From a virus (lineage: Duplodnaviria; Heunggongvirae; Uroviricota; Caudoviricetes): 16,746 nucleotides of DNA. Of the stretch, positions 329 to 15,861 are shown piece after piece (within the stretch, counting starts at the first letter, position 1; the number at the start of each line of letters is the position of its first letter). Location: IMG/VR virus record IMGVR_UViG_2740892439_000018; one strand, 5' to 3'. Made by a program: the position numbers and the translations under genes. The notes under the pieces were generated by a model, which had not been told where the DNA came from, did not search any database, and saw nothing but the letters and a program-made list of their open reading frames with translations.

Positions 329-625
329 ATGTTCGAACAACGCGTAAATTCTGACGTACTGACCGTTTCTACCGTTAACTCTCAGGATCAGGTAACCCAA
401 AAACCCCTGCGTGACTCGGTTAAACAGGCACTGAAGAACTATTTTGCTCAACTGAATGGTCAGGATGTGAATGACCTCTATGAGCTGGTACTGGCTGAAG
501 TAGAACAGCCCCTGTTGGACATGGTGATGCAATACACCCGTGGTAACCAGACCCGTGCTGCGCTGATGATGGGCATCAACCGTGGTACGCTGCGTAAAAA
601 ATTGAAAAAATACGGCATGAACTAA
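329..625 (+). CDS. fis: DNA-binding protein Fis (nucleoid-associated factor for inversion stimulation)
   Basis: 98-aa product [21 protein letters not shown]...[17 protein letters not shown] recognised as E. coli Fis with C-terminal HTH; ATG 329, TAA 623-625. Confidence 0.97.
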
Positions 626-688
626 TTCAGGTTAGCTAAATGCTTGATTAAAAAGGCGCTACTCGGCATGGGGAAGCGCCTTTTTTAT
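609..688. repeat. attL: left copy of perfect 80-bp direct repeat (fis 3' end plus terminator)
   Basis: 80/80 identity with 15760-15839, checked base by base; flanking bases differ at 608/15759 and 689/15840. Covers the last 17 nt of fis and the downstream hairpin. Confidence 0.88.
650..688 (+). terminator. fis rho-independent terminator (copy inside attL)
   Basis: Stem AGGCGCT (654-660) / AGCGCCT (675-681) followed by TTTTTT (681-686); A-tract upstream. Confidence 0.7.
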
Positions 689-692
689 TAAA

Positions 693-714: not shown

Positions 715-1037
715 ATAAGCACGAACGAAACCGAACAATAATAAATAGAATAGATACCTGCCAGTGGTTATGTCTCCGCAGTGATGTGTTTTTTCATTTT
801 TAATGGGGATAAAAACGGTGTGGTGAGCGGTCCGGAAGACGCCATGGCAAGAGTTTTGCCCCGCTTCTCCCTGTGCATGATAGATAACCGAGGGCGGAAT
901 TCCGCCTTCGGTGCTCACATATGAGAAATAATATTTCGTCCACCGATACCCTTTATTTGGGTATCGCGAGTAAGCCCCAGAATCTGGGTGTTACTCTTAC
1001 TACCCAAACTACGGGTAGTTTCCGTAGTTTCATGGTC

Positions 1038-1106
1038 GAGTTGCAGATCTGCAACTCACCCACCAGCCAACCCATTTTGGGGCTGTCGGGAATATCAACC
1101 AGTTAC
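1038..1106. repeat. Structured non-coding repeat unit A: 20-bp perfect palindrome GAGTTGCAGATCTGCAACTC (1038-1057) followed by 44-bp conserved block (1063-1106)
   Basis: Palindrome verified; 44-bp block matches 1367-1410 at 36/44 positions, including CCAGCCAAC and TCGGGAATATCA.C.AGTTAC. Confidence 0.55.
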
Positions 1107-1348
1107 TGACAATGCTCTGGGCGTTCTGTCTAGCTGGTGGCTGTGGCTGGACGCTAATTTTTGCGTACCACTTTTGCGCACTTTTTCAGGGTCGGATTTC
1201 AGATCCCCACCATTCTGGGAGCAGTTGCAGGGGCCGAATAAATCAATAGCCGTGCTGGTAACGTTTTGCATGACAAGTTTTGACAGTTTTTTATCTTCCG
1301 GCCTCCTCAAAATTGAGGATTGAAGAAAAGTCAATGGGTTAGGTCATC

Positions 1349-1410
1349 GTGCAAATTTGCACTATGCCAGCCAACGCAATTTTGCGTTATCGGGAATATC
1401 AGCAAGTTAC
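1349..1410. repeat. Structured non-coding repeat unit B: 14-bp perfect palindrome GTGCAAATTTGCAC (1349-1362) followed by 44-bp conserved block (1367-1410)
   Basis: Same architecture as unit A about 300 bp away, in the same orientation. Confidence 0.55.
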
Positions 1411-1697
1411 CGCCGCAGTCGTTCCGGCTTCTTCCACTGGTAAGTATTTTTCGCGCTCTCCCTCCGTTGTTGAGAACGGCGACGGTATGCCAGCAACTCA
1501 AGGACTCTGGTTCGTATGTTGCGCATATCCACGCCGTTAAGCTCAATACCGTCACGGCGCATCACCTCAGCCACCACACGCGCGTAATTTTCGGCTATCA
1601 CGCTGTCCGGCTGTGTAGCCTGTTCGTCAGGCTGCTGACTGATTCCGGTAATGCGGCGAATTATTTTTAGTAGATCAGTTTCAGTCATTCTCGTCAT
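1407..1697 (-). CDS. Hypothetical protein, translationally coupled to terL (ATGA overlap)
   Basis: 96-aa ORF whose ATG (1697-1695) overlaps the terL stop TGA (1696-1694); N-terminal two-thirds protein-like, basic C-terminus looks odd. No recognised family. Confidence 0.35.
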   Translation of the reverse strand: MTRMTETDLLKIIRRITGISQQPDEQATQPDSVIAENYARVVAEVMRRDGIELNGVDMRNIRTRVLELLAYRRRSQQRRESAKNTYQWKKPERLRR

Positions 1698-3355
1698 ACC
1701 CCATCAAACGCCGCAAGTCGCTCTTTGTGGCTGTCGCTCATATCAAATGCAAATTCCTCATGCTCTGCCTGGAATGTGCCAAACGCCATCAGCGCCGCAA
1801 CGCTCGGGTCTATCTTGTTGGATGATTTTTTCTTGTTCGGCTTGATATTGGCGTTCGCGTCACTCTGCATCACAACATTACTCATTGACCAGGCCAGCAC
1901 CGGATCACCACGATGCACAATCACCTTCCGGTTAACAAAAACTTCGAACGATTTCGCCGCCGGACTGAAACGAAGGTATGTTTGCGGGAACGGCTCCACC
2001 TCAAATCCTGCCCCCTGTAGCTGCGTCCTCAGGTGCGTGGCGTTCCATGTATCGAAGCCCACCAGCCTGATATTGAAATTCTCTGCATCCGCCATGATGT
2101 CATCACGGATACGGTCATAATCAATGCAGTCACCCGGTGTTGTGCGTATCCAGCCCGCCTTTACCCACTGGCGATAGATGGCGCGGTTTTTATTGGCGGG
2201 GTTCTGTAGCTGAAATTCCGGCAGATAGTGACGGGAAACCAGCATAATCTTTTTACCGACCGGAAAGGCATAGCACACGCTGGAAATATCGCTGGTTGAT
2301 GATAAGTCCAGCCCCGCGTAGCACTCCTGCCCGTATAAATCCGCCTCCGCGAACGTTCCGGCGCACTCCGCCCATGCACCGTTACCCATCCACGGCGTAG
2401 CCCCCTGACACCAGATATTGAATCGCTTGGTGAGCATTTCCACCCACTGCGACGGAATACCCCGCGCTTTCTGGATGGTTGAGGCCAGTTTTTCACGATC
2501 GACGGAAACATCGATATTTGGATTCGCCTTTATCCACATCGCCGGATCGTCAACCTCGCTTTCATCATCCAGCTCGTAAATCAGAACGAACATGGATTCG
2601 TTCATCTCTTCACCATCCAGTATCTGACAGCAATAGTCATAGTGTTGTTTACAGGCTGAAACAACGTTGCTCCCCGATGTGGTGATGGCAAATAACAGCC
2701 CCTCCGGACGCGCCCCCATCCCCAGCTCAAGTGCGGAATAAACCCCGTTGTCTGGGTGCAGGTGATATTCATCCACAATGGCAAGACTCGGGTTTGTCCC
2801 CTCAATGGTTGCCGCTTTTGCTGCCAGTGGCTTTAACAGGCTGTTGGTTTTCGGGTGTATCACCTTGTGCGCCTGAATATTTACCCGCTTTCGTAACGGT
2901 CGGGATAAAAGGCACATCTGACGCGCATCATCAAACACGATCCGCGCCTGATCACGACTCACGGCGGCGGTGTAAATATCCTGCTGCCCGTTTTCCATAA
3001 CCAGAAACCAGTTAGCCAGGATAGCGGCGACCGTGGATTTGGCATTTTTTCGCGGTACTTCAATGAATGCGCTGGTGTATTTGCGCCGTCCGGTGGCCTT
3101 AACCTTAAAGCCCAGGATGCAGGCAAAGGCGAACTGCTGCCACGGCTCCAGTTCAATGGGACTACCGCGCATTGCGCCTTTTACGTGCGGACACACCCGG
3201 GAAAAGGCAATAAACCGCTCCACGACCTCCGGATCGAACGTGTAAAGGGAGTTTTCAAGGTCAGAAAAATACCGTTTAACGGCCTGTTTCAGTCGTTTAC
3301 AGGCCGTAATTTTGCCGTTTTTTACGCCTTCTGCGTACTCATGCCAGGCGGTCAA
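1694..3355 (-). CDS. terL: Terminase large subunit (TerL)
   Basis: 553-aa product with a terminase-type N-terminal ATPase region and C-terminal nuclease region; follows terS with 17-nt overlap. Start appears to be TTG at 3355 preceded by GAGGAAGAGG Shine-Dalgarno. Confidence 0.92.
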   Translation of the reverse strand: MTAWHEYAEGVKNGKITACKRLKQAVKRYFSDLENSLYTFDPEVVERFIAFSRVCPHVKGAMRGSPIELEPWQQFAFACILGFKVKATGRRKYTSAFIEVPRKNAKSTVAAILANWFLVMENGQQDIYTAAVSRDQARIVFDDARQMCLLSRPLRKRVNIQAHKVIHPKTNSLLKPLAAKAATIEGTNPSLAIVDEYHLHPDNGVYSALELGMGARPEGLLFAITTSGSNVVSACKQHYDYCCQILDGEEMNESMFVLIYELDDESEVDDPAMWIKANPNIDVSVDREKLASTIQKARGIPSQWVEMLTKRFNIWCQGATPWMGNGAWAECAGTFAEADLYGQECYAGLDLSSTSDISSVCYAFPVGKKIMLVSRHYLPEFQLQNPANKNRAIYRQWVKAGWIRTTPGDCIDYDRIRDDIMADAENFNIRLVGFDTWNATHLRTQLQGAGFEVEPFPQTYLRFSPAAKSFEVFVNRKVIVHRGDPVLAWSMSNVVMQSDANANIKPNKKKSSNKIDPSVAALMAFGTFQAEHEEFAFDMSDSHKERLAAFDGV

Positions 3356-6549: not shown

Positions 6550-7717
6550 CTAGCCAGCTTTCATTTCCAGAATTTTGATGGCGTTTGAATCCACCACACC
6601 ACCGCCCAGATATTTATCCGTGTGGACCTTGTAGAATCCGGGTTCAGTAATGTTGTCCGGTCGGGTGCGAATCCCTGTTACATGATCAACGATGAAATAA
6701 CCACGACTGAAATCGCCAACCGCTAGCGGTGCTTTTCCTGCGCCGATGTCCGGCATGGACTCCAGGCAGTAAACAGGACGACCAAGCAACATATCCGGCG
6801 CACCTTCTTTAAGGCTGTCGCGCCAGATATAATCGCCGTTCTCATTTTTCAGCTTCTGTAGTGTCCCTGCCGTGCCCGAGTTCATCACCCAGACGGCATT
6901 TTTGCGGTATTTCGCTTTCAGCTTGTAGAGAATGTCGATCAGTTCGTCCGCTGTAATGGCGGTTCCACTTGCCGCTACCATTTTTTCAATGGTGCCAAAA
7001 GCGCGGGTTTTGTCACTGGTCGCCGCACGGGTGTAAGCATGAAGCCTTTCGGCTTGCCGTTACCGTTGCCATTAACAAAATCATCCTCTTCGGTGCTGGC
7101 GAACGTGTCGGCAATTTCGGAGGATAACCAGCCAGAATATCCACCTCTGAAAAATCTAGGATTTCCTGCGTGGTTTTCGGGTAGGCGTAGATCGGGTTCA
7201 GCTTGATGGTTACGCGTTCAATTTTCGGGGTGTTGGTTTCACTGCGTGCGCTGCCTTCTGTGCCTCGTCCTACAGTTGCGCCGCCAGTGGAAACCAGTTT
7301 CTGAAACTCATTTGATTTTGCAGTCTTCACGGTCGCGATCACGCGCATAACACTGTCATCCTGTAGCTGGCGCATGACTTCGCGATCAAGCTCAGGAATT
7401 ACGGTATATCCGCCATCCCTGCCGCTGTCAGTGCTGGTGGACAGAGATCGCACATCTCCGGTTACGATGTAGTTACGCAATTCATCAGATGATACTTTCT
7501 GGATGCCCGTTCCTGGCTTGCTGCGTTCTTCATCAGCCACAGACTCGAGGCGGGAAATGTCTGTATCGAGGGAATCAGCTTTTGCACGCAGTTCATCAAA
7601 CTGTTTGCCCTCGTCATCGTTCAGGCTGCGGTTTTCACTGTCGGCTTTTTCCAGCAGGGATCGCATCTGGTTTTTCAGGGCGTTTTTTTGCTGGCGGAGC
7701 TCGATTAATTTCTTCAT
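6550..7717 (-). pseudogene. Major capsid protein (HK97 family), disrupted by two single-base frameshifts
   Basis: N-terminal frame 7717-7013 (coiled-coil delta-like region then TIKLNPIYAYPKTTQEILDFSEVDILAGY); a third frame across about 7125-7035 reads SSEIADTFASTEEDDFVNGNGNGKPKGF; C-terminal frame 6981-6550 reads AYTRAATSDKTRAFGTIEKMVAASG...MKAG. Hand translation puts the shifts near 7119-7126 and 7036-7043. Confidence 0.85.
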
Positions 7718-7964: not shown

Positions 7965-8741
7965 ATGGAGATTCAAGTGACAAAAGAAATTCTTGCTGTT
8001 CCTGGGATGCGACCATCCCCATTGTTCAAAAGGACTTATAAATTAGTTCGGGAGATTGACGAAAGATTAACCAAACTGATTCATAGATGGCGATTTTTCA
8101 ATGCAGGCCCCCCCATGAAAGTTACTGCATATGATGGAACAGAAATATGCTATCAAGGTTTGGCATTTAAAGGTACTCCCGTTCAAATTTTTTGGAATGG
8201 TTTTATCGATCCTTACATTGAAAATAACTCAGAAATTGTTTTAGAGCAGACCTCCGCGTTAGCAATTGAATGTCAATTCTCAATAGAGGAGTCAATCGAG
8301 GAGGCTAAATTACTATTACTTGTGATGATTCGCAGGCTTTACTATGAAATGGCCGAAACAGATAAAATATTAAGAGGTGATGGGTTTTCCTTCCCAGAAA
8401 AAAAAGACGTTAGTGGTTATATTGAAAGTATCTCTCAAAAAATCATAGAACATGCTGAAATTGAAAAGCTAAAAAAAACGCATCCAAAACAAAACATATT
8501 CAACATAGCTACTGTAAATAGCCAATACGTACAACTTGGTACAAATAACAATATTAATATACAAGAGCTCTCTGAGTTCTTCTCAAAAATTGCATCAACT
8601 GGTGAAAAAGAAATTATTACTCTCTCAAAAAACCTTCTTAAGAAGGCCTACTCAAAAAACTTACTGAGTAAAGAAAACTATGAAGCTCTAATATCAAACC
8701 TTAACACACAGACAAAATACACTTTCAAATCTACTAGTTAA
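7965..8741 (+). CDS. Hypothetical protein (258 aa), AT-rich accessory gene, unrecognised family
   Basis: Long ORF on the strand opposite to every other island gene, visibly AT-rich; possible alternative GTG start at 7977 preceded by GGAG. C-terminal module NIFNIATVNSQYVQLGTNNNINIQEL...KNLLKK shared with the next gene. Confidence 0.75.
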   Translation: MEIQVTKEILAVPGMRPSPLFKRTYKLVREIDERLTKLIHRWRFFNAGPPMKVTAYDGTEICYQGLAFKGTPVQIFWNGFIDPYIENNSEIVLEQTSALAIECQFSIEESIEEAKLLLLVMIRRLYYEMAETDKILRGDGFSFPEKKDVSGYIESISQKIIEHAEIEKLKKTHPKQNIFNIATVNSQYVQLGTNNNINIQELSEFFSKIASTGEKEIITLSKNLLKKAYSKNLLSKENYEALISNLNTQTKYTFKSTS

Positions 8742-8770
8742 ACGCAAAAGCGATCACGAGGAGCAACATA

Positions 8771-9280
8771 ATGGATCTTAACGTCATGGCATATCCAGAA
8801 AAATTCACAATCGCAGGAGTTGAATACAAGGGGAAAAGAAACTCAGCTGAAAAAAAAGTGCTAATCCCTTATACTGAAGAACCAGATATTAATATTGGAG
8901 ATGAAATCACTCAAAAACTAGGGAAGGGGGAAATAATATTAAAAGTAATTGATATGTCATTTTTACCAGGAGGTACACTCAATGTTGGTACTAATCACCC
9001 TCACATGCTTACATTAAAAGTCGAGAATCTGACTGCTAATGAACATAAACCAAAACAATCTAGCCAAAATACATTTAACATTGGTAACATATCCGGTACA
9101 CAGGTTCAACTCGGTGAGCATAACAATCTTATTGTAAATCTCAGCATAACTGAACTTGTTGAAAAAGTTTCTCAATCACAAGATCCTCAGGCAAAAAATT
9201 TGCTTAAGGATTTACTAAATAATAGTACGGTAGCCAGTCTCGTTGGTGCTGGTGCGTCCGCCTTGTTAACAATGCTTTGA
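8771..9280 (+). CDS. Hypothetical protein (169 aa), AT-rich accessory gene with hydrophobic C-terminal tail
   Basis: Strong GAGGAG Shine-Dalgarno 7 nt before ATG 8771, 29 nt after the previous stop; motif NTFNIGNISGTQVQLGEHNNLIVNLS...KNLLKD parallels the upstream protein; ends ...STVASLVGAGASALLTML. Confidence 0.8.
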   Translation: MDLNVMAYPEKFTIAGVEYKGKRNSAEKKVLIPYTEEPDINIGDEITQKLGKGEIILKVIDMSFLPGGTLNVGTNHPHMLTLKVENLTANEHKPKQSSQNTFNIGNISGTQVQLGEHNNLIVNLSITELVEKVSQSQDPQAKNLLKDLLNNSTVASLVGAGASALLTML

Positions 9281-9575: not shown

Positions 9576-9723
9576 TATTTCTTCCTATTTTATCTAATTT
9601 ATCTAATTTGTAGTCATTTTTAACCAGTATTCGGTCAAATCAAGCGCGTGTTTTTGTGTGCTTTACTGTCATAGTCTTTATCTCACAGCAGTAAATTAAA
9701 ATTTTTGCGTTTTAACCCTTCAC

Positions 9724-9946
9724 CTGTTCACCTTTTGATATTTTATCTTTTAATTCATAAGGTTAAGGGGTGAACAGTTTCACAAAAACTATTCACCAAC
9801 TGTTCACCACTGTTCACCCTTGAAGCTCAATAAACAATCAAAAAGGTGAACAGTGAATAGTTTGGTGAACAGTTCATAAATAACTGTTCACCCTATAATA
9901 TACTGATATAAAAGATATTTATGACAGGGTGAACAGTGGTGAACAG
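9724..9946. repeat. Iteron array (9 copies of GGTGAACAG / CTGTTCACC in both orientations); putative island replication origin
   Basis: Forward copies at 9769, 9845, 9864, 9928, 9938; reverse copies at 9724, 9800, 9810, 9884; embedded in AT-rich DNA immediately 3' of the primase-helicase stop (9960-9962). Confidence 0.72.
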
Positions 9947-9959
9947 TTATTCCATAAGT

Positions 9960-11777
9960 TTAATTTTTGCTATCGTCATTAGTGACCGATACACATGATG
10001 GCATCCAGTCTTCTGATTCCTCCGTCAGTGTCACGTTTGAACGCAAACCGTGCTTCGTTTTCCGTTTCATATACTCCCTGCCATATTCCGCCATTGCCCC
10101 CGGCATATCTTTACCGAAGCGCGTCAGTGTTACAGGTTTACCAAACCCATGTGCCCTCATATAAGCCAGATAGGCATGATAGAGATATCTGCGCGGGCTG
10201 AATGGCACAATTTCAGCATTACCCACTAACAGGCCATCACACATTACCGACGCCATGAGATAGCCGCAGAAGTCCACCAGCGAATCCCCCTCTCGCTTTA
10301 TCGCCAGTGCTTCTTCAGATTTCTGCTGCTCATATAACAGGCGTCTGGCTTCGTCCTGGTTAGCAAACCGTGTAAGCAGATGGCGAATCACTACCGCCAG
10401 CTCACCTTCTATTTTTTCCGCCAGCATCGGATCACGTTCGTTCTCCGGTACAACTTCCGAAAAATTGAATATCACCCGACGACGTGAGATCCCCCCGCTG
10501 CGGTCACTGAATGACATGGCGTTATTGTTAACCGCCAGCACTACTGCCGGAATACGCGTTGAGTAGGGAGCTTTGTGTTTCGGGTCAATTGCCACCTTGT
10601 CACCGCCTGTAATGGCCTTAATCCCTGCCCCATCACCAGCGTAGCGGGTCATATCCGGCATGATAATCAGAGAAAAGCCAACCACTAACGCACGTTCCCT
10701 TGCATCTTCCAGCGCCTTCATGCTTGCTGATACTGTATTAGCCTTACCCGCCAGCATGGTGCAAATCTCCGCCATTACGCTTTTACCGCTTCCACCAGGA
10801 CCAGTTACCTCAATGAATAACTGCCAGTCATATCTGTTCGCCAGCACCATGAATAATGCCGCCAGTACACGATCCGCTTTGCGATCATTCTCAGCCACCG
10901 AACGGTGCAACCACTTCCAGAAATTCGGCGCATGTGTTGCCAGCGTTTCCCCCTCTGCTGGTGGGCTGAAAGGTAATTCACTGGCAATTAACAACCAGTC
11001 GTTTTTGTTATGCTCCCGAAAATTACCTGTTCTGGTATCAAATACCCCGTTACTGAATCCAATCAAGTTACGGGCTGTATTCCCCATTACAGGCAAACTT
11101 AACTTCATGGTATCGACCGCTGATTTAATAGCGTTCTGTGAATAGCTGATCTCCGCATCAATGAAAATCTGCGCCATAGCACGCTGTAACTCTTTATCCT
11201 GAACCGGCTCCCATATAACGCCGTTGTAATGGTGAACAGTGTCAGAGTCAGCATGAATCGCCAGTTCACCACCATAATGTGCCAGGAGAACTTCGCCGCG
11301 TTGACTTGCTCCCATCTGGTTAAGCGCCAGTGATGAAGCGTTATCGTCTTTTACCCGCTCTTTTTTCTTTACAGGCAGTTCAACAACCTTTTTCTTTTCC
11401 GCCAGCTCTCCCCGCTCACGCTCCAGATATTCGCGCCAGTTCTCCCGTTTCTGGCTGTGCATTCCTTCAGGGTAATAATCAGCATCCCTGACACCTGCCG
11501 CTGCCAGTTTCTGCCCGATGGTATTAACAAGTCCCGGACGCAATAACCCCGCCTGATAGAGACGCACACGATAGCGTCCGTCTGGTACGATTTGCAGGTT
11601 GTCCAGTTCGGCAAGTTGTTGCTCTCCAAGCCAGACAGGTGGCACGTTATCGCCAGCCAGTCGCCCGTCCTGTTCCTGCCACTGCTTCGCATGTGCCCAC
11701 GCATCACTACCCGCAAAAATGATGACTTCCGTCATTTTGTCACGCGGTTGGTGTTTTAAATTTGGCGCTTTTTTCAT
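9960..11777 (-). CDS. Replication initiator: P4-alpha/D5-like primase-helicase (Pri-Rep) with Walker A GPGGSGKS
   Basis: 605-aa product from ATG 11777 (GGAGAGAG Shine-Dalgarno; ATGA overlap with upstream gene); central P-loop NTPase (VTGPGGSGKS...DxxxD) resembles D5_N/SF3-helicase replication proteins of P4-like elements; ori iterons abut its 3' end. Confidence 0.88.
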   Translation of the reverse strand: MKKAPNLKHQPRDKMTEVIIFAGSDAWAHAKQWQEQDGRLAGDNVPPVWLGEQQLAELDNLQIVPDGRYRVRLYQAGLLRPGLVNTIGQKLAAAGVRDADYYPEGMHSQKRENWREYLERERGELAEKKKVVELPVKKKERVKDDNASSLALNQMGASQRGEVLLAHYGGELAIHADSDTVHHYNGVIWEPVQDKELQRAMAQIFIDAEISYSQNAIKSAVDTMKLSLPVMGNTARNLIGFSNGVFDTRTGNFREHNKNDWLLIASELPFSPPAEGETLATHAPNFWKWLHRSVAENDRKADRVLAALFMVLANRYDWQLFIEVTGPGGSGKSVMAEICTMLAGKANTVSASMKALEDARERALVVGFSLIIMPDMTRYAGDGAGIKAITGGDKVAIDPKHKAPYSTRIPAVVLAVNNNAMSFSDRSGGISRRRVIFNFSEVVPENERDPMLAEKIEGELAVVIRHLLTRFANQDEARRLLYEQQKSEEALAIKREGDSLVDFCGYLMASVMCDGLLVGNAEIVPFSPRRYLYHAYLAYMRAHGFGKPVTLTRFGKDMPGAMAEYGREYMKRKTKHGLRSNVTLTEESEDWMPSCVSVTNDDSKN

Positions 11778-12073
11778 TTCTGCTCTCTCCACGCGGCAAT
11801 CATGTTTTTCAGTTCCTGTAGTTTTTTATCCACATCCACACGTGACACATGGTTATTTCTGGAAGGCGGGATTTCCCGCCGGAATCTGCAAATAAAGATC
11901 TCCACGTTCAGCGAGCTATGAAATGAATAGCCATCACGAATAAAGTACACACGGTCAAACATTATCGATTTTACTGTTACTCTGTTGCCGTTCTTATCCC
12001 GATAAATAGCGCCGGGGATAATTTTGGGATGTGCATAACCGCTGGCAGTCAAGCCAGATAAATACGTTCTCAT
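11774..12073 (-). CDS. Hypothetical protein (99 aa), coupled to pri-rep
   Basis: ORF whose stop overlaps the pri-rep ATG (ATGA); unrecognised family. Confidence 0.55.
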   Translation of the reverse strand: MRTYLSGLTASGYAHPKIIPGAIYRDKNGNRVTVKSIMFDRVYFIRDGYSFHSSLNVEIFICRFRREIPPSRNNHVSRVDVDKKLQELKNMIAAWREQK

Positions 12074-13630: not shown

Positions 13631-14364
13631 GTTCGCCCTAAGTATTTAGCCCACGTATTCTTATCTGTTGCGGGAAGAAACACCCCTTTCATCGCTGCCG
13701 CAGCCTCTAAAACAGCGATCACTTTAGCAACTGGAGCAGTTCCAATATCTATATCATCCATTTCTGGAATTAGTTTGATTAATGCAGGGATCAACTCAGC
13801 TTTCTTCGCAAGAGTTTTTGGCGATTCTCCCATTTTTCTTCCAGGCATGGTTCCAACATCTTTGATATGCTCCAAATCCTTAGCCATTACACATAAAAAC
13901 CTTCTGTCGATCTCAATAGCCCCATCACTCATAATTTGACATTCCCAGTTTTCTGATTCAGGACGAGTTGAAAAAAAAGATGATACTATCCTTGCATCAT
14001 TGCCAATAAATTCAAGTTCAGAAAAACTTTCCCGATTTAGATAGAAGAAACCGCAAAAATTCTTTGCAAGATAAGAAGCCACACCAAAATAATTTACCCA
14101 TTCAAAATCGCTACCAACAGGCTTCATCCCTGTAATTACCCAGCGATCCCCTTGCAACATCCCTCCAGAATCAACATCAATATTTTCAACTAATGATTTT
14201 GGTATAACTAGCGATTTACATGGATGACAGTTTGGAAAATAAACAGAAATATTCAAAGCACCTATAGCAGCAAAATGATATATATCATTAAGCGTACATC
14301 CCAGCTTCTTTGCTGCTTCAGGCAATGGATAATATATACGCTCAGGGATGCTTATCTTTTTCAT
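13627..14364 (-). CDS. Hypothetical protein (245 aa), AT-rich, translationally coupled to int; possible N-terminal HTH
   Basis: ATG (14364-14362) overlaps the int stop TGA (14363-14361); visibly lower GC than int; N-terminal LPEAAKKLGCTLNDIYHFAAIGAL resembles an excisionase/AlpA-type HTH; remainder unrecognised. Confidence 0.78.
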   Translation of the reverse strand: MKKISIPERIYYPLPEAAKKLGCTLNDIYHFAAIGALNISVYFPNCHPCKSLVIPKSLVENIDVDSGGMLQGDRWVITGMKPVGSDFEWVNYFGVASYLAKNFCGFFYLNRESFSELEFIGNDARIVSSFFSTRPESENWECQIMSDGAIEIDRRFLCVMAKDLEHIKDVGTMPGRKMGESPKTLAKKAELIPALIKLIPEMDDIDIGTAPVAKVIAVLEAAAAMKGVFLPATDKNTWAKYLGRT

Positions 14365-15584
14365 TTCGCTACCTTCAATATTTTTACATTTGAATACTGA
14401 CCAGAAATAACCTCAAGCCGTTCCATCCATTTATTTAGAGCGTCTAGTTTTTCTGGTAAGTACTGGCTACGATTGTATATGGCCATTACACCACCTAATG
14501 TGTGACCGAGAAGCTGTTCAACAACATGTGGTGCAATCCCCATGTTATTTAGTGTGGTAGCAAACGTCCTGCGCAGGTCGTGAAGTGTCCACGATTCAAT
14601 ATGCCCCAGACGCTTATATATCATCCTCCCCCATTGGCTGACAGCTTCTGGTTTCTTTATTTCACCCAACAAAAGACCTGAGTTTTTGTGTTGCTCTATA
14701 AGCTGTTGGATGAATGGGCGTATTACCACTGGAATAGGGCGCAATATCTTCTCTCCGCCTTTGCTGTGTTCTTTAGGCACTGTCCAGATCCAATCCTTTA
14801 AATCCCACTCTGTAATACGTGACAACCGAAGCTCCTGGGTTCGACATCCAAACACCACCAATAGACGCAACAACGATGAATAGTATGGTTTAAATTTCTT
14901 ACCTGAACATTCCTGCCAAATATCTGCTAACTCTTGACTGCTGTGTTCCCTATCGCGCTTATTCTGTTTTCTACCAACATCATCGATAGTCAGGTCATCC
15001 AGAGCATTGCTAACCGCATAACGATGTACGCGGCAAAACTTCAGAGCCTGCTTACACATCTGCAGCAAATAACCAGCTGCCACTGGAGCGTCATTCCTTA
15101 CTCTAGCGAAACACTCCAGCCAATGCCGGGTTTCGCACATTGATAACGGATAATCACCTATATAGGGGAAAATATGCTTCCTCAGTTGCTCAATGTGTTT
15201 ATCAACATTCGTGCGCTTGTAAACGGCGTATTCTCTGATCCAGTAATCCAGAGCCTCTTTTACCGTCACTGGTTTGAGTGTTTCATGTATTGCCACATTT
15301 AACCGATGCTTTGGATTTTTACCTTCAGCAAGCCATGCTCGACACTGTTCACGTTTCTCGCGCGCAGCTTTCAGAGAAAGATCCGGGTAGTTTCCAAGCT
15401 TAACACGCTGTGAATACGATTCACGCCCACCAATCCGGAAAGAGAAATACCAAGTAAGAACGCCAATTTTTGACACCTTGATACTCAATCCATCACCGTC
15501 AGCATAAAATCTATCTCTATCGATTTCCCTCCCCAGCATCTTACGCAACGATGTATCGCTTAATTTGTTCGTTCCTCCAGCCAT
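14361..15584 (-). CDS. int: Tyrosine site-specific integrase (P4-type)
   Basis: 407-aa product from ATG 15584 (AAGG Shine-Dalgarno); N-terminal MAGGTNKLSD... and C-terminal catalytic region ...WTLHDLRRTFATTL...VEQLLGHTLGGVMAIYNRSQY typical of P4-family integrases. ORF-track start 15665 is TTG. Confidence 0.93.
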   Translation of the reverse strand: MAGGTNKLSDTSLRKMLGREIDRDRFYADGDGLSIKVSKIGVLTWYFSFRIGGRESYSQRVKLGNYPDLSLKAAREKREQCRAWLAEGKNPKHRLNVAIHETLKPVTVKEALDYWIREYAVYKRTNVDKHIEQLRKHIFPYIGDYPLSMCETRHWLECFARVRNDAPVAAGYLLQMCKQALKFCRVHRYAVSNALDDLTIDDVGRKQNKRDREHSSQELADIWQECSGKKFKPYYSSLLRLLVVFGCRTQELRLSRITEWDLKDWIWTVPKEHSKGGEKILRPIPVVIRPFIQQLIEQHKNSGLLLGEIKKPEAVSQWGRMIYKRLGHIESWTLHDLRRTFATTLNNMGIAPHVVEQLLGHTLGGVMAIYNRSQYLPEKLDALNKWMERLEVISGQYSNVKILKVAK

Positions 15585-15610
15585 AGAAAACCTTAATTCA
15601 TATTGAAAAC

Positions 15611-15632
15611 TGACTGCACCACTGACTGCACA
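15611..15632. repeat. 22-bp arm-type repeat TGACTGCACCACTGACTGCACA (right arm, int promoter region)
   Basis: Exact copy of 693-714; lies 27 nt upstream of the int start and 127 bp inside attR. Confidence 0.6.
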
Positions 15633-15759
15633 CTTTAATATTACCCTATGAACAGAAATGAACAAAGGTAAACTAAAGAAACAACATTAATTATTTTATT
15701 CAATAAGTTATATAAACACTAACGAACCATGACAAACTGTAAGAAACATAGGTTTTGAT

Positions 15760-15839
15760 AATACGGCATGAACTAATTCAGGTTAGCTAAATGCTTGATT
15801 AAAAAGGCGCTACTCGGCATGGGGAAGCGCCTTTTTTAT
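15760..15839. repeat. attR: right copy of perfect 80-bp direct repeat
   Basis: Identical to 609-688; contains a second copy of the fis 3' end and terminator hairpin (about 15801-15839) just upstream of yhdJ. Confidence 0.88.
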
Positions 15840-15861
15840 AGGTGTCACAAAGGGAGTGACC

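Follow-up and report, generated by a model that had tools for sequence, protein, structure and literature searches.

Structured repeat units with an IHF-like box between orf96 and the attachment site in Escherichia coli phage-inducible chromosomal islands

Bacterial interspersed mosaic elements of the BIME-1 class (also RIB or RIP) combine palindromic units (PUs) with a site for integration host factor (IHF) and lie at the 3′ ends of transcription units. We describe a repeat of comparable layout in the non-coding left arm of a phage-inducible chromosomal island (PICI). The window, by which we mean the whole stretch of DNA analysed (16,746 nt, IMG/VR record IMGVR_UViG_2740892439_000018), comprises E. 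coli dusB-fis, then a 15-kb capsid-forming PICI (cf-PICI), then yhdJ. The units lie downstream of orf96, with which the late (packaging) operon ends. With moderate confidence we read them as a satellite-specific extragenic repeat, similar to repetitive extragenic palindromes (REP) and BIME-1, that would form a structured, insulating end of the late operon. PICIs are under intense study, yet their non-coding arms have been ignored by annotation.

The repeat unit and its family

A preliminary description of the window, made from its sequence, had proposed two units, each a perfect palindrome followed by a 44-bp block. The direct repeat of that block holds as described: 1063-1106 and 1367-1410 match at 36 of 44 positions (82%) with a spacing of 304 bp. 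The block is one copy of a repeat of ~50 nt that is always oriented as orf96. Both proposed units exist, but a third, more diverged copy at 1292-1342 had been overlooked. A covariance model built solely from units of other islands (19 units) has exactly three matches in the window, all on the minus strand, and the overlooked copy scores best (Table 1; E-values refer to a 242-kb search). Unit 2 starts at the orf96 stop codon (TAA, 1409-1407). The two perfect palindromes, at 1038-1057 and 1349-1362, are likewise present; their centres, though, are AGATCT and AAATTT rather than TGCA, which occurs once in each arm of the palindrome (TGCA-N4-TGCA). The longer one, GAGTTGCAGATCTGCAACTC, is identical in the islands L002-L004 and partly kept in L005 (89.7% over 29 nt). 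Elsewhere the 20-bp palindrome element follows units in L004, L058, L052 and L012, and the 14-bp element in L067, L074, L020 and L088.

On the orf96 strand the unit consensus is (G/C)TAAC-N3-(T/C)TGAT(A/T)TT-YYCGRAA, a stem and RGGYYGG; some units are followed by a second palindrome, TGCA-N4-TGCA. The stem measures 5-10 bp and the loop 2-6 nt, usually 2-4 and mostly A/T-rich. Just past the stop codon of orf96 homologues the usual string is TAAC-N3-YTGATATT-YYCGA, a hairpin and GGCTGG, where the hairpin may be AACGCAA/TTGCGTT, AAGTGCA/TGCACTT, CGGCCCA/TGGGTTG, AGCGCAA/TTGCGCT or TTCGCC/GGCGAA. Units further downstream carry other stems (CCTCA/TGAGG, CCCCC/GGGGG, CAGCC/GGCTG, CCTGC/GCAGG, GCGCA/TGCGC).

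Many E. coli and Shigella PICIs have one to six copies within the first ~500 nt of the arm, in one orientation throughout, some of them in tandem at 54-nt spacing (L020, L067). The units occur in cf-PICIs (the window, L002 at thiM and L087 at phoQ) and also in classical Rpp-type PICIs with lambda-type cos (L003, L005 and many IMG/VR contigs). In 242 kb the covariance model matched at 117 places (E up to 1). Every full-length match is on the orf96 strand and, where an orf96 homologue is annotated, lies downstream of it; the rest of the 242 kb yielded none. When IMG/VR was scanned with the unit pattern alone, not using orf96, 80 loci were found, and 69 of these have, on the same strand, an orf96 homologue no more than 700 nt upstream; several others consist of truncated arms or retain remnants of orf96. 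The module of orf96 plus arm had no match among 50,697 GenBank phage records, and scans of genome contigs gave 0 and 1 locus. A query spanning orf96 and the arm (690-1700) matches 1398 of 5426 complete E. coli genomes, about a quarter, at a median of one place per genome. In the searchable literature, strings derived from the units gave irrelevant matches only, and no IHF site or repeat is described there for this arm. The units are an apparently undescribed, statistically robust family of cis elements; the box, the covariation of the stem, the position and the distribution can all be read directly from the sequences.

The stem of the unit is maintained by compensatory changes across islands. 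Since the units were gathered by sequence motif, were sorted by loop parity after the stems had been seen and are related by descent, the following shuffle figures are not probabilities: among odd-loop units (alignment A4) the five stem pairs hold standard pairs in 98.9% of cells, all five are changed on both sides, and the observed values were reached by 0 of 500 shuffles; among even-loop units (alignment A6) 87.9% of cells are paired, five of seven pairs have double changes, and 0 of 500 shuffles equalled the observed pairing or the covariation score. The stronger argument comes from controls in which the partner strand was slid, where pairing in A4 falls to 30-58%, and from the number of unrelated stem sequences: over all loci there are 33 distinct stems, at a fixed distance from the conserved box, of which 29 are fully Watson-Crick. 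The suggestion that conservation of the two halves of the unit is not accidental is borne out, in that the stem covaries across islands and the TGCA palindrome recurs after units elsewhere.

Within the unit, TAA and TGAT are invariant, with four or five variable positions between them. On the opposite strand this box reads WATCAA-N4-TTA, the IHF consensus (WATCAANNNNTTR, as reverse complement), and the N4 positions of the consensus coincide with the variable positions of the box. Among 60 distinct units, collected with a pattern that fixed TAA and TGA, 28 have the exact IHF consensus and 48 have it with at most one mismatch; only a single register shows this, the others averaging 5-7 mismatches. 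A unit set derived from the covariance model has the same box profile, with T16, T17, C19, A23, G43 and G44 conserved in addition. The units may thus be protein-binding sites, as had been suggested, since the conserved box matches the IHF consensus; the paired layout that went with this suggestion is not general.

The stems bear on a purely RNA role, which we regard as a real though minor possibility. The units would then be stem-loops of a 3′ untranslated region (3′-UTR) that act as barriers to 3′ exonucleases, as RNase processing sites or as regulatory or sponge RNA, and the IHF-like box would be coincidental or an RNA-level motif. Such a role fits the fixed orientation relative to orf96, the start of the first unit at the orf96 stop codon, the short stems with compensatory changes, which can form in single strands only, and a minimum free energy (MFE) fold of the minus strand that includes every unit hairpin. 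In looser stems G.U exceeds A.C on the orf96 strand (about 8 versus 3 independent events), but the core stems contain almost no wobble pairs (3 G.U versus 1 A.C in 187 pairs; 4 versus 4 in another count), and the two strands of 860-1415 have equal fold z-scores (−5.7 and −6.1 against dinucleotide shuffles). The orientation and the length of the stems speak for a single-stranded transcript; the scarcity of wobble pairs in core stems and the like folding of both strands speak for maintenance of the palindromes at the DNA level or by a mechanistic process. An RNA role also leaves unexplained why the best-conserved positions coincide with the IHF consensus while N4 varies, and the negative Rfam, promoter and terminator results that follow count against it too.

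A described RNA family or small RNA gene was rejected: an Rfam search (E up to 10) gave only two hits in the arm, at E = 6.8 and nowhere near gathering score, the best hit within 600-1800 being the fis terminator/att repeat, and promoter and terminator counts were at the level of shuffles. A scan of the minus strand of 600-1800 found no terminator-like site; the unit stems are followed by RGGYYGG. The notion of two small RNA genes fails accordingly, with promoter and terminator signals around the units not above chance and no Rfam match; because the units start at the orf96 stop and are constantly co-oriented with it, a 3′-UTR or cis element suits them better than separate genes.

The left arm and the island

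The arm had been taken for about 1 kb of non-coding DNA. It has no supported gene, but its length from attL to orf96 is 716 bp (691-1406). Annotation of an identical copy (E. coli MS6198, RefSeq) by the Prokaryotic Genome Annotation Pipeline (PGAP) places no feature between fis and orf96, and the open reading frames (ORFs) of the arm gave no PHROG hit. The dense structure noticed there is real: 12 perfect hairpins have stems of at least 7 bp, against a mean of 0.4 and a maximum of 4 in shuffled arms (n = 500), and their density is 16.7 per kb in the arm versus 1.2 per kb elsewhere in the window (~14-fold). The reported hairpin with a 9-bp stem at 1006-1030 was found, as was the 14-bp palindrome GGCGGAATTCCGCC, at 893-906 instead of 892-905. 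The latter is the core of a 26-bp near-palindrome that forms part of a conserved distal arm module (about 790-1062); it is conserved at 100% in L002 and L003, and variants occur in 18 distinct homologues. Homologues of the distal-arm hairpins (860-1062) have 86-95% identity. The stems 999-1019 and 1006-1030 are mutually exclusive; the MFE folds of both strands predict all hairpins of 944-1030.

The layout of two copies 304 bp apart is peculiar to the lineage of this island. Sister islands have one to six copies at other spacings, and some orf96-bearing islands have none. In the cf-PICI L002 and in L004, a PICI that lies within an O157 prophage, the distal arm (790-1106) meets orf96 through a single unit, whereas in L003 and L005 there are at least two units, separated by unrelated DNA. 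The insert that separates units in the window (1107-1291) is not in the sister islands L002-L005; followed by unit 3 and the 14-bp palindrome, it is found in 47 of 5426 genomes, in 43 of them at 99% identity or more. Both units bounding it end in GGCTGG, and the 3′ edge of unit 1 is precisely where a Chi site arises. Because the insert is rare, missing in the sisters and bounded by units, the 304-bp spacing is a lineage-specific insertion; its simplest cause would be recombination between units of different arms that inserted the 304-bp segment.

The units had also been thought possible relics of decayed genes. A coding gene or relic was rejected, there being no PHROG hit, no homologues of the 79-aa ORF of the insert and indels between the copies that are not multiples of three. 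The copies are 44 and 48 nt long, which breaks any frame, and TAA and TGA are invariant in two frames. Compared with 5.8 billion proteins, the 79-aa ORF matched only itself and one partial copy with 100% identity, and the insert is not annotated as an intact gene in the E. coli genomes that carry it. In the distant relative L089 a PGAP pseudogene partly overlaps the insert homologue, not the units. The refuting conditions set out in the preliminary description come out divided: in relatives the units fall in no coding frame and the unit itself is conserved, whereas the repeat architecture is not.

Such arms invite a neutral explanation, in which the units are by-products of tandem or unequal-crossover duplications of the orf96 3′ end and its downstream hairpin, shuffled between co-resident islands, with palindromes kept perfect by template-switch (quasi-palindrome) correction and having no function. 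We consider it quite unlikely. It would account for unit tails (AGGCCGGAAC..., ...GGCGCGGTAAC) that resemble the final orf96 codons (AAGCCGGAACGACTGCGGCGGTAAC), for copy numbers from 0 to 6 in mosaic arms, for the Chi site at the edge of unit 1, for near-perfect stems with very few wobble pairs and for islands that lack units but share an identical orf96 tail. It sits badly with the 33 stem sequences, which share position and length range and have conserved flanks; stems so varied and yet paired require selection or an unusually efficient correction. Nor does it predict that the box positions stay invariant among diverged copies.

Other elements occupy this region in related islands. In L089 (215-1110) the arm downstream of orf96 holds cargo genes for a Panacea-domain protein and a partner, so that the arm doubles as an accessory-gene slot. 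Arms of L029, L033-L035 and L074 have four or five GTGAC repeats at 10-bp spacing, then AAAAAGACGG; the repeats directly follow the orf96 stop in L029 and L033-L035, lie about 415-450 nt past it in L074, and in L029-type arms take the place of the hairpin units. They may be arm-type binding sites for integrase or excisionase near att. In the window, just inside attL, GTGCAGTCA occurs twice, 12 bp apart (695-718, minus-strand reading), and this pair may be arm-type sites for the fis-specific integrase.

Table 1. Features of the left arm and of the island in the window (+ and − denote strands)
Feature	Position	Strand	Remarks
attL	612-690		att direct repeat of ~79 bp, fis 3′ end and terminator; identical attR at ~15763-15841
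GC-rich near-palindrome, 26 bp	887-912		perfect core GGCGGAATTCCGCC at 893-906
Distal-arm hairpin run	944-1030		944-966 (8-bp stem), 976-988, 999-1019, 1006-1030 (9-bp stem)
Hairpin 'B' after unit 1 (orf96 strand)	1038-1057		perfect 20-bp palindrome GAGTTGCAGATCTGCAACTC
Unit 1	1057-1106	−	contains block 1063-1106; covariance-model match E = 9e-4; stem-loop 1068-1085; exact IHF consensus TATCAACCAGTTA at 1093-1105 (+); Chi 1060-1067 (−)
Insert between units	1107-1291		Chi 1133-1140 (+); no supported gene; island-specific
Unit 3	1292-1342	−	best covariance-model match in window, 40.5 bits, E = 3.6e-10; stem-loop TCCTCAAAATTGAGGA at 1304-1319; IHF-like box AGTCAATGGGTTA at 1329-1341 (+), 1 mismatch
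Hairpin 'B' after unit 2 (orf96 strand)	1349-1362		perfect 14-bp palindrome GTGCAAATTTGCAC
Unit 2	1361-1410	−	contains block 1367-1410; covariance-model match E = 8e-4; stem-loop AACGCAATTTTGCGTT at 1373-1388; IHF-like box TATCAGCAAGTTA at 1397-1409 (+), 1 mismatch
orf96	1407-1697	−	96 aa; phrog_1561; conserved hypothetical; last gene of late (packaging) operon
TerS (P27-family) and TerL	1694-3355		
Prohead protease, portal, head-tail connector, HNH endonuclease			head genes after the split capsid gene
D5-type primase-helicase	9960-11792		
AlpA-like excisionase/regulator			island gene
P4-type integrase	14361-15665		Arm-DNA-bind_3 domain; only integrase of the window
Chi sites	1060, 2059, 4946, 6180, 6432, 10274, 13216	−	
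Chi sites	1133, 7433, 10957	+	

All island genes but two are on the minus strand, and int lies beyond att on the same strand as the late operon. The att repeat includes the fis-PICI identity block TACGGCATGAACTAA of the fis attachment site of PICIs (PMC10111431); attL also carries an IHF consensus, AATCAAGCATTTA, at 637-649. The island carries the cf-PICI gene set, by comparison with bioRxiv 10.1101/2022.09.08.507074. Its major capsid gene is in two minus-strand ORFs, 6550-6981 and 7013-7717, which match the C-terminal and N-terminal parts of Pfam Phage_capsid; the split suggests a frameshift or stop, so that this cf-PICI copy may not build capsids. Between the origin of replication (ori) and the capsid gene lies a plus-strand gene pair (7965-9280; 258 and 169 aa; phrog_5789), for which Pfam and PADLOC gave no match and which is candidate accessory or defence cargo. 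Downstream of the primase-helicase gene, the ori (9714-9952) has an AT-rich core surrounded by nine copies of TGTTCACC, which occur in both orientations; the octamer is the same as the phage P4 alpha-protein iteron. Two records of 'non-mobilizable plasmids', NZ_CP148328.1 (10.8 kb) and NZ_CP148430.1 (12.2 kb), match the orf96/arm region and may be excised circular PICIs assembled as plasmids.

The Chi sequence (GCTGGTGG) has 10 exact sites in the window, every one within the island and seven of them on the gene-sense strand, against an expectation of 0.47 in composition-preserving shuffles. The average Chi density of E. coli would give about three. Chi enrichment could protect rolling-circle concatemers of a satellite that has no Gam-like inhibitor of RecBCD.

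Possible roles of the units

In the reading we prefer, the array would act as REP and BIME-1 (RIB/RIP) do at operon 3′ ends in bacteria. At each box the DNA would be bound and bent by IHF, and in single-stranded nucleic acid the short palindrome would fold into a stem-loop, the simplest case being the 3′ end of the late-operon transcript. The packaging operon, which is heavily transcribed, would in this way gain a structured, insulating end right before att, which in this island would adjoin the convergent fis gene. Transcription through the units and any phenotype, like the binding itself, are what we infer.

Several points weigh against the REP/BIME-1-like reading. A scan of the window with the REP consensus gave hits at chance level only, none of them in 691-1410, and BIME-1 is dispersed over the chromosome whereas the units are confined to PICI arms downstream of orf96. 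Structured RNAs do not usually have stems so nearly pure in Watson-Crick pairs, cruciform extrusion in duplex DNA would need stems longer than 5-8 bp, and the strands of 860-1415 fold equally well, with no asymmetry that would separate RNA from DNA. With no U-tract after the stems on the orf96 strand, the units are not classical terminators. Since units are missing from about a quarter of the arms that bear orf96, the array can be dispensed with or replaced. As for the box, IHF binding is proposed from the consensus; its invariance is partly circular, TAA and TGA having been fixed in the collecting pattern, and the covariance-model set that agrees on it descends from the same seeds.

A more ambitious proposal, decidedly improbable in our view, makes the hairpin array a satellite-specific cis-regulatory switch and not a passive REP-like element. 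In one version the units may be RNA or single-stranded DNA modules recognised by the arginine-rich orf96 tail or by a helper or host factor; if so, they would decide whether late-operon transcription passes through attP into int, something that only the excised circle allows. In another they may be processed into a decoy RNA that acts on the helper phage or the host.

A structured repeat common to cf-PICIs and lambda-cos PICIs marks orf96-arm-att-int as one conserved module. The units are a testable cis element with possible roles in the insulation of host genes against late transcription of the satellite, in DNA shape near attP and in the mosaicism of arms through recombination; if neutral, they remain a useful marker of PICI ends.

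Comparison with described elements

Integron attC sites resemble the units in three ways: a cassette-like insert lies between two repeats, the hairpin is conserved more than its sequence, and the unit has a start like RYYYAAC (GCCTAAC). However, attC pairs RYYYAAC with an inverted GTTRRRY, whereas the units are shorter and had no inverted partner in any arm inspected. The attC/cassette model was rejected, the window having a P4-type but no IntI-type integrase and the units enclosing no genes.

Repeats with an IHF site near terminase genes are also found in lambda cosB (R elements plus IHF site I1) and in cos1/cos2 of EcCICFT073, and duplication of cos sites in PICIs has been described (PMC6092414, PMC6739421). 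In the Rpp-type loci L003, L005 and L021-L085 we observed two convergent lambda-type cos about 60-950 nt upstream of the orf96 homologue, and no more than about 65 bp separate one of them from the orf96 start; in both types of PICI, orf96 thus adjoins packaging signals or genes. The least probable explanation we weighed takes the units for packaging signals (cos, pac or terminase-binding repeats), for iterons of an origin (ori/crr) or for attP arm sites. What speaks for it is location, since the region adjoins terL and orf96 and classical PICIs have cos sites near orf96, together with a box like the IHF site of lambda cosB. Yet these units are shared by islands whose packaging systems, two in number, are unrelated, the lambda cosN GGGCGGCGACCT has no match in the window beyond chance at up to two mismatches, and cosQ too is absent from arm and window. 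A lambda-type cos was rejected: in relatives, the flanks of EcCICFT073 cos1/cos2 map upstream of orf96, as do both Rpp-type cos sites, and not in the arm. Of 11 Rep iterons (TGTTCACC) in the window nine cluster at 9725-9945 and none is in 691-1410, and a P4-type ori/crr was rejected for the units on this ground. As attP arm sites they were likewise rejected; they lie 370-700 bp from the att core here, too far for arm-type sites, and their number and spacing vary between arms.

In the lambda nut site, as in the units, a conserved linear box precedes by a few nucleotides a short stem whose loop is A-rich, and a neighbouring small gene encodes a protein with an arginine-rich segment containing QWK. 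The C-terminus of orf96 (1407-1490) is such an arginine-rich tail, RRRSQQRRESAKNTYQWKKPERLRR, superficially like the RNA-binding motif of lambda N, RRRERRAEKQAQWK, a likeness that has no statistical support. On this model orf96 and the units would be a protein/cis-site pair: the tail would bind the hairpins as lambda N binds boxB and would govern how far, in the excised circle, late-operon transcription reads through attP into int. We hold it to be very improbable. Tight linkage, co-orientation, A-rich loops, an int gene on the same strand beyond att and the basic, superficially N-like tail are in its favour. The nut boxB, however, has a GNRNA-like pentaloop on a 5-bp stem, where the units have loops of 2-4 nt (AA, ATT, AAC or AAAA), and nut lies just downstream of a promoter, where the units follow the operon. 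They have no boxA match. BLASTP gave no alignment of orf96 with lambda N, a profile search of the PDB with orf96 found no solved relative, and the AlphaFold model of orf96 has a predicted local distance difference test (pLDDT) score of 62, too poor for a fold search. Moreover, the tail does not co-vary with unit presence: it is conserved where units are lacking, and is identical in islands with 0 and with 4 units. A nut site was rejected for want of a pentaloop and of an N-family protein. According to the EcCIEDL933 preprint, efficient transfer requires a 'hypothetical gene 1792' that belongs to the packaging module and may or may not correspond to orf96.

The closest counterpart remains BIME-1. 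It consists of two inverted PUs of 35-40 nt, whereas the units here have one short stem of 5-10 bp per box, free in sequence. Membership in BIME-1 was rejected on the absence of the REP sequence, the single short stem and the confinement to satellite arms. In other respects the units have the hallmarks of BIME-1, with an IHF consensus inside the element and an extragenic position at the 3′ end of a transcription unit. Like BIME-1/RIB/RIP, they are short extragenic repeats of variable copy number, often in adjacent copies at such 3′ ends, in which a palindromic stem stands beside an IHF consensus and a role is possible at the level of DNA, of RNA or of both.

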